Below, in pieces: positions 40,002-41,831 of a stretch of DNA of 64,000 bases (positions are counted from its first letter, which is position 1; each line of letters begins with the position of its first letter). Where the stretch lies: the IMG/VR virus record IMGVR_UViG_3300023174_009216. The stretch is one strand, 5' to 3'. Position numbers and translations under genes: made by a program. Source of the stretch: a virus (taxonomy: Duplodnaviria; Heunggongvirae; Uroviricota; Caudoviricetes). The notes beneath the pieces are model-generated. The model saw nothing but the letters and a program-made list of their open reading frames with translations. It did not search any database and had not been told where the DNA came from.

Positions 40002-40890
40002 TTAATTACTTAGAGGTGCTTTGATTGCTGGATGTGATTGATAGTTTTCTAATTGAAAATCTTTTGGATCTAGGTGACCATATAGAGATTGGTTTTCTGA
40101 TAGAGATTTGTAAAACTCATCTGTCTTCATGTGTTTTAATGTAGGTAATTCAAAAGGCTGTCTTGTTCTTTTCGGAATGTTAGCTTCCATAAATTCTTGA
40201 CGTTTACCATCAACCAATGCGTCCATGCCAGTTTTTTGCAGAAACTCTATTCTTTCTTCTTCCGTGTATTCTCTACCTATCTGCTCTTTAGCCTGCTCAA
40301 TGTGGTTGCTATAAAGGTGTACATCACCCAAGTTACCAATCAATTCATCAGGAACCATGTTGACTTCTTTGGCTATGATTTCAAGTAGTAATCCATAAGA
40401 TGCTATGTTGAATGGTAAACCAAGGAAGGTATCTACTGAGCGTTGATTCCACATTAATGAGATTGCTCTGGTTGGAACTCTACTTGCTCTCATATCATCT
40501 TCTTCATTTTCTAACCCTGCTTCTAAACGTTCTAAAACTACATTATTCTTTTTACACCAGTCTCTTCTTTCTTCCAAACTCAACTCTCTCGTATATACTT
40601 GAAATCCATAATGACAGGGTGGCAAAACCATTGAATCCAAATCTGAACAGTTCCAGCTATTAACCATTAATCGTCTTGAGTCAGGATTTGTTTTGAGTTC
40701 AGAGATTAGGTTTGCGATTTGGTCTATTCTATATGTTGACATTCTCATCTCTGACCTATCAATACCTCTCCAATTTCTCCACTGCTTTCCGTATATTGGT
40801 CCAAGGTCTCCAAATCGATCAGAAAATTCTTTGTTTGTTTTAATTTTTTCTACAAACTCTTCTTTAGTATAAGGCCTTCCTTCTGGGTGT
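40002..40890 (-). CDS. thyA: thymidylate synthase, 3' exon / C-terminal portion (5' boundary approximate)
   Basis: [39 protein letters not shown] (active-site PPCH) and GDVHLYSNHIEQ match ThyA. The N-terminal ThyA region is absent from this ORF and found at 41571..41831. Confidence 0.7.
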
Positions 40891-41570
40891 AAATGTTCTT
40901 TATTCATAAGTTTATTTTTTATATTCCCATTTGTAATTTCCTGATGATTTTCTTTTTCCTTTACACACATTACATATATTACTAGCCGCTAATTTTAATT
41001 CCCTTTGTATATCTGCTAAGCTATCCCATGTTTTAATATATTCATCATTTAAAGTGTATTGGTTTATTTTAATACTAGAAAAATGCAATACCCCAATTTT
41101 TTCAAACATACCATGATTCTCTCCAGATATTAAATAACCCTTGCCAAACATCGGATTGTTTTTACCGATCCTTTTACCTTTCCTGTTTTTCCTCATCAAT
41201 GATTTTGTATCTTCTGAGTGTTTACCGTTGCTACCTGGATCTTTTATATTCAACATTTCAAATTCACAATCTTTATATTGTTGCCAATAATATATCTCAT
41301 AATCATTTAGAATGGTTTGTGATACATCTTTTGGAAGTATTGTAAGAATTTGAAATTTATGATTTTCCCATCCGTATTTAATTATTGAATTATATAGCTT
41401 TTTTTGGCGACTGCAATGAGTTTTTTCATATTGATTAATTCTCCTTCTAATACACCAACTTTGGCCTATATAAATTTTATTTGTTGGGCTAACGATTTTG
41501 TATATTGCTATCATCAATCCTTATTTTGTTTCTCTAATCTTTCGCACTCTTTCAAATAAGCTTGATAACA
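40891..41570 (-). mobile_element. putative group I intron (or intervening mobile insertion) carrying a GIY-YIG homing endonuclease ORF within thyA
   Basis: ThyA N-terminal and C-terminal coding parts are separated by about 680 nt that encode a GIY-YIG/NUMOD protein. Architecture mirrors the T4 td intron with I-TevI. Splice sites not determined. Confidence 0.5.
40912..41514 (-). CDS. GIY-YIG homing endonuclease with NUMOD3-like motifs
   Basis: AIYKIVSPTNKIYIGQSWCIRRR...H (GIY-YIG core) plus GKRIGKNNPMFGKG and GENHGMFEK repeats. ATG at 41514 overlaps the TGA of the upstream thyA reading frame. Confidence 0.75.
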   Translation of the reverse strand: MIAIYKIVSPTNKIYIGQSWCIRRRINQYEKTHCSRQKKLYNSIIKYGWENHKFQILTILPKDVSQTILNDYEIYYWQQYKDCEFEMLNIKDPGSNGKHSEDTKSLMRKNRKGKRIGKNNPMFGKGYLISGENHGMFEKIGVLHFSSIKINQYTLNDEYIKTWDSLADIQRELKLAASNICNVCKGKRKSSGNYKWEYKK

Positions 41571-41831
41571 GTCCCCAGTCCAGATGTTGCAATCGTTATC
41601 CAGCAAATACTTCAAATCAGACCGTCCTTGCAAAAACCACAATAGTTCTGTTACAACTCCTTTAAAATAAAGTTTTTTGGTGGTTAAAGCAGGAAACCCG
41701 GTTTTCATATCATGTCTTATGGTTATTCCAAAGACACTTAAAGTACCGGTTCCTGTTCGGTCTTTCTTTTCAACTCCATTATCAAGAATATCTTGTAAAA
41801 GAGCTTGATAATCTAAATCTAATTTATTCAT
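41571..41831 (-). CDS. thyA: thymidylate synthase, 5' exon / N-terminal portion (3' boundary approximate)
   Basis: [12 protein letters not shown]...GFPALTTKK...ELLWFLQG...NIW is the conserved ThyA N-terminus. The frame runs on to a stop at 41514 inside the insertion. Confidence 0.7.

Follow-up and report, generated by a model that had tools for sequence, protein, structure and literature searches.

In the record IMGVR_UViG_3300023174_009216 of a tailed phage (Caudoviricetes), a stretch of 64,000 nucleotides (nt) which is here called the window, the thymidylate synthase gene thyA is divided over three tightly packed open reading frames (ORFs) of the minus strand: thyA-N, a GIY-YIG endonuclease gene and thyA-C. 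The evidence favours, with a probability of roughly 80%, a thyA whose two pieces are translated separately on either side of a free-standing homing-endonuclease gene and would be functional by reassembly. An earlier note on this DNA had described a thyA interrupted by a GIY-YIG ORF with all parts on one strand, and the ORFs, Pfam and independent assemblies agree with it. Its preferred explanation, a self-splicing group I intron of the td/I-TevI type, finds no support, and the alternative that it kept in reserve, gene fission by insertion of an endonuclease gene, is backed by comparative evidence. The parts of the locus are as follows (protein lengths in amino acids, aa).

41831 to 41514, minus strand: thyA-N, 105 aa; PF00303 at E=1.3e-28, profile positions 2-91.
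41514 to 40912, minus strand: endonuclease ORF, 200 aa from the ATG at 41514-41512; stop codon TAA at 40914-40912.
40907 to 40002, minus strand: thyA-C, 301 aa; PF00303 at E=1.1e-56, profile positions 76-235.
41558 to 41517, minus strand: N-tail, 14 aa specific to split alleles; amino acids kept despite synonymous codon changes; helix in the AlphaFold2 model.
40907 to 40872, minus strand: C-head, a conserved N-terminal extension of ThyA-C of 12 aa; missing from the intact allele of locus L180.
40896 to 40916, minus strand: gene-start motif (..AAACTTATGAATAAAGAA) at the start of ThyA-C; the same motif stands before ThyA-N and neighbouring genes.
40728 to 41831, minus strand: mosaic tract of about 1.1 kb (thyA-N, the endonuclease gene and the first 60 thyA-C codons), from block identities and blastn.

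The reading frames leave almost nothing between them. ThyA-N ends in three stops in a row (TGA TGA TAG), and the endonuclease ATG shares the A of the first of them (TGA, 41516-41514), which is the overlap of start and stop already pointed out for the 200-aa endonuclease and amounts to 1 nt; an alternative start, TTG at 41517, would give 201 aa. The endonuclease ORF spans 603 nt and is followed by a spacer of 4 nt before the ATG of ThyA-C. The conserved start of ThyA-C is the ATG at 40907 and not a position near 40890, as had been proposed; gene callers list a 322-aa ORF, and the ATG of the longest ORF, at 40970, is not the conserved one. Likewise, the distance of about 680 nt given for the two pieces has to be replaced by 606 nt between the stop of ThyA-N and the ATG of ThyA-C, or about 770 nt from the NIW motif to GDLG. 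The ThyA-C ATG carries the standard gene-start motif and is a genuine gene start. The motif TTATGAATAAA occurs four times against 0.33 expected, in all cases at gene starts (repeat families D2 and D4). The tight spacing, with a 1-nt overlap on one side and a 4-nt spacer on the other, suggests translational coupling along one transcript.

A repeat of about 28 nt, AAACAATAGAAAGTTATGAATAA, lies on the minus strand at 41824-41851, 42455-42482, 42683-42710, 43594-43621 and 44099-44126. Its copies lie across the start codons of small genes in succession, which begin MNK..., and a shorter version is found at the ThyA-C start (40896-40916). The repeat may function as a module common to these genes, for translation initiation or as a promoter, and modular recombination may use it as a substrate. 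A scan of 39500-42500 for sigma-70 promoters and terminators gave promoters at or below shuffle expectation and nothing useful.

The same arrangement is present in ERZ2680843 NODE_321 and in contigs from SRR7812574 and ERZ28574659, and an assembly artefact is excluded because these assemblies are independent. A megablast of the region against GenBank phages gave no match; relatives are found at the protein level only, the best being Flavobacterium phage immuto with 55%.

Between them, the two pieces hold the motifs of a thymidylate synthase. ThyA-N carries the Arg of DRTGTGT, the Glu of TELLWFL and the Trp of NIW, and ThyA-C carries the Tyr of GPIYGKQWR, the Arg pair of SRRLMV, the catalytic Cys of PPCH and the C-terminus IKAPLSN. 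The ThyA fold and its active-site motifs (PPCH, QRSx, GDxHLY and the C-terminal IKAP tail) are thus present across both. When the pieces are concatenated, they align in a single stretch across the junction (query 7-215) to 3uwl and 4dq1, the solved thymidylate synthases of Enterococcus faecalis and Staphylococcus aureus, which are of the Lactobacillus casei type. The split point falls inside the small-domain insert of that type, and tail and head align to its loop in the solved structures. In comparison with Escherichia coli ThyA there are three extra segments, common to the whole phage family: the L. casei-type small domain, which holds the split, about 38 aa after YTRELS, and about 50 aa near the C-terminus. 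The last of these had been noticed earlier and is real, but it is a family trait unrelated to the split. The same applies to SWNC in place of AWNP, which recurs in the closely related intact ThyA P0140 and is therefore a lineage variant with no bearing on the fission.

Structure prediction agrees with this placement. An AlphaFold2 model of the fused N and C pieces (predicted local distance difference test, pLDDT, 74; predicted template modelling score 0.68) places the N-tail within a helix at residues 85-101 (block pLDDT 81-85) and the junction in a short loop; past the junction the C-head is modelled confidently, followed by helices at 120-137, and the block 101-110 has a pLDDT of 69. Foldseek matches the model to the L. 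casei, E. faecalis and S. aureus thymidylate synthases with template modelling (TM) scores of 0.80-0.86, normalised to the target. On this model, the fission point is a surface loop of a small domain that varies between lineages.

An insertion of this kind might simply have killed the gene, in which case the fragments would be decaying and the phage would use the ThyA of its host or another enzyme. Such a reading could appeal to the fact that ThyA activity is here predicted from sequence, and that the window of 64 kb is part of a genome which may hold a second thymidylate synthase outside it. It is nevertheless improbable. Both ThyA ORFs are intact with the motifs of the catalytic residues, and these motifs are also kept in the C fragments of split alleles. 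The ratio of nonsynonymous to synonymous substitution (dN/dS) of stand-alone N fragments is 0.07-0.21 wherever synonymous divergence, which runs from 0.5 to saturation, is unsaturated; this implies strong and long-lasting purifying selection on the N fragment as a separate gene. More than 100 diverged clusters keep the same architecture of stop, tail and restart, and in locus L095 the split has outlasted the loss of the insert. Judged by N-fragment dN/dS, C-fragment motifs and the number of clusters, both pieces appear to be maintained by selection.

The tail and the head merit separate attention. Across 12 split alleles their amino acids are constant and their codons vary synonymously, so they evolve as coding sequence. 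They could be imagined as halves of a split intein that ligates the N and C pieces by protein trans-splicing, in the manner of a 'fractured gene', which is scarcely credible. Split-intein halves measure roughly 100 aa and 35 aa or more, and here the N piece has at most about 14 aa of sequence foreign to ThyA and the C piece at most 12 aa. Pfam finds PF00303 as the sole domain on either piece and no intein domain, and both extensions align, as described above, to a loop that solved thymidylate synthases possess. In favour of trans-splicing, the metagenomic loci of Dassa et al. (2009; PMC2677866) also have an endonuclease gene between gene halves.

The intron explanation deserves the fullest discussion, as it is the one that the locus invites. 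Self-splicing group I introns do occur in thyA of T-even and Bacillus phages, and one carrying the endonuclease ORF would give a spliced transcript and a single ThyA. In the window the N and C pieces happen to share one reading frame, the distance between their starts at 41831 and 40907 being divisible by three. The related thyA of L095 also has a true td-type intron, in which an I-TevI-like ORF lies, but at the canonical site between QRSV and DTFLG. Against this, the window has no room for a ribozyme because the endonuclease ORF fills the whole gap, with non-coding sequence lacking on the upstream side and limited to the 4-nt spacer downstream; in the td-type intron of L095, RNA of about 160 nt precedes the ORF and about 155 nt follow it. 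The Rfam scan that had been proposed as a check, run on 40700-41700 at E<=10, found no RF00028, no group I core and no group I or group II model. As a control, a narrow scan in the same mode of the L095 thyA detects RF00028 at 31.4 bits (E=6.9e-6). Narrow scans of two other split loci found no RF00028 either. Rfam scans over many kb missed even the real L095 intron and are hence given no weight, and the narrow scans are the valid tests. The L095 intron has sequence matches in the T-even td intron region, and its halves, searched with blastn and nhmmer against the window, gave no match.

The coding sequence speaks in the same direction. The N and C pieces are already colinear with intact ThyAs and abut within the variable loop, so there is nothing for splicing to restore, and ThyA is complete without it. 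The codons of tail and head are under coding constraint. Unrelated ORFs occupy the same site in other loci, separated from the ThyA pieces by -1 to 115 nt on the upstream side and by -14 to +6 nt on the downstream side, and the split of L095 persists with no insert at this site. In L095 the N stop and the next ATG overlap as ATGA (...AAAGAATGAAAGTA...) with zero intervening nucleotides, and therefore only two polypeptides can result from this junction. A group I intron is thus very improbable, and the window appears to hold no ribozyme. For the 606-nt gap, read-through and ribosome bypass were also considered and rejected, given the three consecutive stops after ThyA-N; in loci L031 and L032 a read-through product is excluded because the N and C frames differ.

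The thyA of L095 (3001-5296; ENA ERZ4201050 NODE_5, 344 kb) is itself in three pieces. The N piece (3001-3327) meets the middle one (3324-3848) in no more than the insert-less ATGA overlap, a td-type group I intron follows at about 3828-4842 between QRSV and DTFLGLPF with an I-TevI-like, zinc-finger ORF at 3992-4687, and the last exon comes after it. Fission and a true intron coexist in this one gene.

The identity of the ORF between the two pieces rests on several profile matches. The GIY-YIG part of its earlier label holds: Pfam GIY-YIG (PF01541) scores 22.7 bits against a cut-off of 22.6, and PHROG 314, 'homing endonuclease', matches at E=2.8e-22. The NUMOD3 part is weak, at 16.6 bits and below the cut-off, as are NUMOD1 (18.8 bits) and the I-HmuI_NUMOD-like module (17.2 bits). 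The predicted layout is an N-terminal catalytic domain, a NUMOD3-like linker and a C-terminal NUMOD1/I-HmuI-like helix-turn-helix, with no zinc finger. An alignment with I-TevI and other endonucleases shows Y5, Y15, G17 and N89 as invariant (the GIY Tyr, the YIG Tyr and Gly, and the Asn), and an Arg cluster and a Glu line up with I-TevI. The C-terminal 50 aa share 34-42% identity with the C-termini of three other inserts found at this site. The nearest relative whose context was read, P0261, is 67% identical and also lies in a split thyA. A further relative at 44% is free-standing beside a MazG / dCMP (deoxycytidine monophosphate) deaminase / thyA cluster.

Many other relatives (P0263-P0311) have only the N-terminal 55-60% of the endonuclease in common, at 50-66% identity, and differ in their C-terminal regions. 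This constancy of catalytic domain and linker suggests that DNA-binding modules are shuffled onto one nuclease domain.

The split is not peculiar to the window. A search with ThyA-N against 5.8 billion proteins returned 1766 matches at E<=1e-10, and the best 120 of these (68-100% identity) are all N-terminal fragments of at most 168 aa, 112 of them of 100-109 aa. The end YQAYL(K/R)E(C/Y)E(K/R)(L/Y/M)..., followed by a short end rich in K, E and N, is shared by 29 of the 30 N fragments retrieved; the 30th, P0120, is split at a later site. The split of the window type hence marks a large clade, with 119 of the 120 best N-fragment matches. The C pieces all begin with Met, as MNKEHLHP(E/D)GRP(Y/F)T... 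or MK(A/F/V)xxxD(L/F)H(E/P)(S/N/D)GR(P/V). Among 175 related loci, thyA is intact in 136 and split at the same site in 25. Where thyA is intact, the homologue is one ORF of 343-452 aa, as in Flavobacterium phage immuto, in a metagenomic megaphage and on about 70 IMG/VR contigs, and a loop joins IWDGDAYKNY to (T/S)xEEFIxKIKTDxEFAxxWGxLGPIYG; in all 136 intact loci this loop, from IWDGDAY to (T/S)xEEFIxKIK, varies in length and sequence. The comparison with uninterrupted alleles, by which the earlier note hoped to map an intron insertion site, places the site in the small-domain loop and identifies an intact allele (L180) that lacks stop, insert and head.

At least five kinds of insert occupy the split site across loci, and an insert-less form is also found:

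200-aa GIY-YIG ORF: window type.
268-aa GIY-YIG ORF: L049, L114.
247-aa GIY-YIG ORF with a zinc-finger C-terminus: L032.
232-240 aa ORF with a NUMOD1 C-terminus: L031, L046, L101, L109, L013.
323-aa DUF7487 ORF, matching PHROG 'homing endonuclease' families: L087-L098, L105.
No insert: L095, with the ATGA overlap.

Junctions of the L095 type account for 1-2 of the 25 split loci. In L046, L049 and L095 the endonuclease ORFs are preceded by the AT-rich sequence ATATTTATAATAAAAAAC. The AT-rich (A)TATTTATAATAAAAAAC, at L046:3261-3278, L049:336-350, L095:3970-3989 and in other loci, directly precedes the endonuclease ORFs and several other genes of related contigs; it is reminiscent of a phage late-type promoter. 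Neither motif is present in the window, where the endonuclease ORF overlaps the ThyA-N stop instead.

Endonuclease genes are also associated with thyA at other positions. A second fission site lies in the next variable loop, after GKIYGHGWRNW, in L178:3001-5693 and L179:1913-4605, where the N piece measures 168 aa and precedes a NUMOD3 ORF of 291 aa, ORFs of 134 and 55 aa, and a C piece of 249 aa; the N piece P0120 occurs on 17 contigs. Free-standing GIY-YIG genes lie directly downstream (L180:2501-4458) or upstream (L026, L079, L048, L077) of intact thyA. In this phage group, thyA is thus a hot spot of endonuclease genes in general.

Evidence on how the split spreads comes from the closest relatives of the window. 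Its C piece is nearest to the intact ThyAs P0140 (401 aa) and P0141 (409 aa), at 77-78% overall. In blocks of 20 aa, this identity resolves into about 55% over the first 160 residues of N plus C and 92-99% over most of the rest, and the split allele L096 shows the opposite pattern, with 81% near the junction and about 50% beyond. The N fragment and the C-head of the window are closest to split alleles. The loci that encode the two intact proteins (L176 for P0141, L177 for P0140) are syntenic with the window, lack the endonuclease gene, and have flanking DNA 85-97% identical to it on both sides. Within thyA, blastn against them gives 67-70% for 41852-41632, no match for 41632-40728 and 90% from 40728 on, with a sharp 3' boundary of the mosaic tract at ATAGACCAAATCGCAAACC... 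The clear mosaic signal came from these closest intact relatives; sliding-window identity among split alleles shows no more than a modest rise near the junction. A foreign tract of about 1.1 kb centred on the endonuclease gene looks homing-like, as co-conversion of flanks would leave; both the part played by the endonuclease and the way in which the transfer ran are inferences.

The intact allele of L180 adds a second kind of evidence. It has the split-type tail directly joined to a segment whose DNA is 96% identical to that of the window, and it lacks exactly the stop, the insert and the 12-aa C-head. It would be either an empty-site form or a re-fusion.

These observations can be combined into the following mechanism. 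A free-standing GIY-YIG gene sits inside thyA, in a hypervariable surface loop, with no intron or intein around it, and thyA would therefore be expressed as two cistrons. ThyA-N ends at its own stop, and ThyA-C starts at its own ATG in the standard gene-start motif. The two polypeptides would fold together and, through non-covalent contacts, form an active thymidylate synthase protomer, probably helped at the fission point by the conserved N-tail helix and the C-head, which may act as a clasp, by analogy with the NrdA tails of Aeromonas phage Aeh1. During co-infection, the endonuclease would cut thyA alleles free of it, and repair would copy the endonuclease gene with its flanks, by which an intact thyA would become a split one.

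From this follows a wider proposal, for which the odds are judged to be a little short of even: the fission itself would be a mobile, self-propagating trait. The stop, the endonuclease gene, the gene-start and the 12-aa head would together convert intact thyA by homing; tail and head, taken over as a protein clasp, would make the split nearly neutral, and the site would be a shared landing pad for unrelated endonuclease genes which replace one another or are lost, after which the enzyme would stay split for good. If true, selfish endonucleases drive the heritable fragmentation of a core enzyme across a phage clade and give rise to a natural two-piece thymidylate synthase.

A variant of the main explanation reverses the order of events, with a split older than this endonuclease gene, which would be a later tenant and not the cause. 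At least five kinds of ORF share the same tail and head, L095 does without an insert, and the same possibility has been raised for gene 43 of Aeromonas phages 25 and 44RR (PMC2988022). On the other side, the intact allele of L180, with near-identical adjoining DNA, fits insertion, and junctions of the L095 type are rare. This variant is unlikely, though it deserves to be taken seriously.

Several points weigh against two functional ThyA pieces around a mobile endonuclease gene. The Pfam GIY-YIG score of the endonuclease is marginal, its activity and target are at most predicted, and a PDB sequence search with it gave no meaningful match. The sequence fits thymidylate synthase and a dUMP (deoxyuridine monophosphate)-hydroxymethylase-type variant of the fold equally. 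The AlphaFold2 run was made on an artificial fusion of N and C, is of moderate confidence and is no proof of a heterodimer. The neighbour-joining tree of C fragments is star-like and does not decide between a single and a multiple origin of the split. Finally, the mosaic tract could stem from general phage recombination rather than from conversion initiated by the endonuclease.

Other genes of the window give the setting of the locus. An ORF like GNAT acetyltransferases (39648-39998) lies directly after ThyA-C, and this pairing is kept in L095, L176, L177 and L178. A few genes downstream of thyA, at 37286-38333 on the minus strand, precomputed Pfam matches indicate proteins of the T4_Y16D family (PF26092) and the Acb3 family (PF25187), the latter a candidate factor against the cyclic-oligonucleotide-based antiphage signalling system (CBASS). 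A cluster of 20 transfer RNA genes, found at Rfam gathering thresholds, occupies 10971-17059, all on the minus strand. The window also encodes NAMPT/NAPRTase (21768-23273), a collagen-repeat protein (54783-57293), a topoisomerase IV/gyrase A-like subunit (60690-62123) and a 949-aa protein with a Fib_succ_major domain (32436-35285), a content typical of a large virulent phage.

The locus is of interest for several reasons. It corrects an attractive wrong annotation, as pipelines and readers would call an intron or two 'partial' ThyAs. Thymidylate synthase would join the short list of essential phage genes known to function as separate pieces once an endonuclease gene has entered them (nrdA, topoisomerase, DNA polymerase), cases that each concern a single phage. 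The presence of the split in many independent metagenomes, together with intact sister alleles, provides a natural series for the study of invasion without a splicing element, of tolerance to fission and of conversion-tract mosaicism. A permissive split site with natural tails in the thymidylate synthase fold could also serve split-enzyme selection systems.

The closest precedent is nrdA/mobE of phage Aeh1. Friedrich and colleagues reportedly described in PNAS in 2007 that nrdA is split there by a free-standing HNH gene, mobE, as 'genes-in-pieces'. As in the thyA locus, a free-standing homing-endonuclease gene lies in an essential gene of nucleotide metabolism with no intron or intein, and two separately translated polypeptides carry unique C- and N-terminal tails at the fission point. 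The genes and the endonuclease families differ, with nrdA and HNH in Aeh1 and thyA and GIY-YIG in the window. The function of the Aeh1 tails has been demonstrated, those at the fission point being essential for activity (Crona et al., 2011, NAR; PMC3045599), whereas the thyA split is known from sequences. The Aeh1 case concerns a single phage, and the thyA split a large clade, in which the insert comes in at least five interchangeable kinds and is missing from one form.

Other examples of genes-in-pieces include mobA in gene 39/60 of T4, listed together with mobE in Aeh1 nrdA, and the 43A/43B split of gene 43, with seg43 in Aeromonas phage 25 and an untranslated spacer in 44RR (PMC2988022). 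Like thyA, the replication genes 39/60 of T4 and 43 of Aeromonas phages are essential and are expressed as two cistrons, with or without an endonuclease gene at the site, and the 44RR spacer parallels the insert-less junction of L095. These cases concern different genes; that source describes no thyA case and reports no replacement of inserts on a population scale. The metagenomic 'fractured genes' likewise have an endonuclease gene between two gene halves (Dassa et al., 2009; PMC2677866).

T4 td with I-TevI shares with the window a thymidylate synthase gene and the GIY-YIG superfamily with NUMOD modules. It differs in that the window has no ribozyme and two polypeptides, in that its endonuclease lacks the zinc finger of I-TevI, and in position, the window split lying after NIW in the small-domain loop and the td intron between QRSVD and FLG; a true homologue of the td intron is present in the related contig L095. 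The intronless homing of the free-standing Seg and Mob genes of T-even phages (SegF, SegG; PMC2988022) resembles the window in an endonuclease gene between cistrons, in presence/absence polymorphism and in a localised foreign flanking tract. The classical Seg or Mob gene lies between two different genes, whereas that of the window lies between the halves of one enzyme, and homing would therefore spread gene fission. A search of the accessible literature for split or fragmented thyA found no report, which is no proof of novelty. The arrangement is not a new principle, but its clade scale and the turnover of unrelated inserts, including an insert-less survivor, exceed the precedents.

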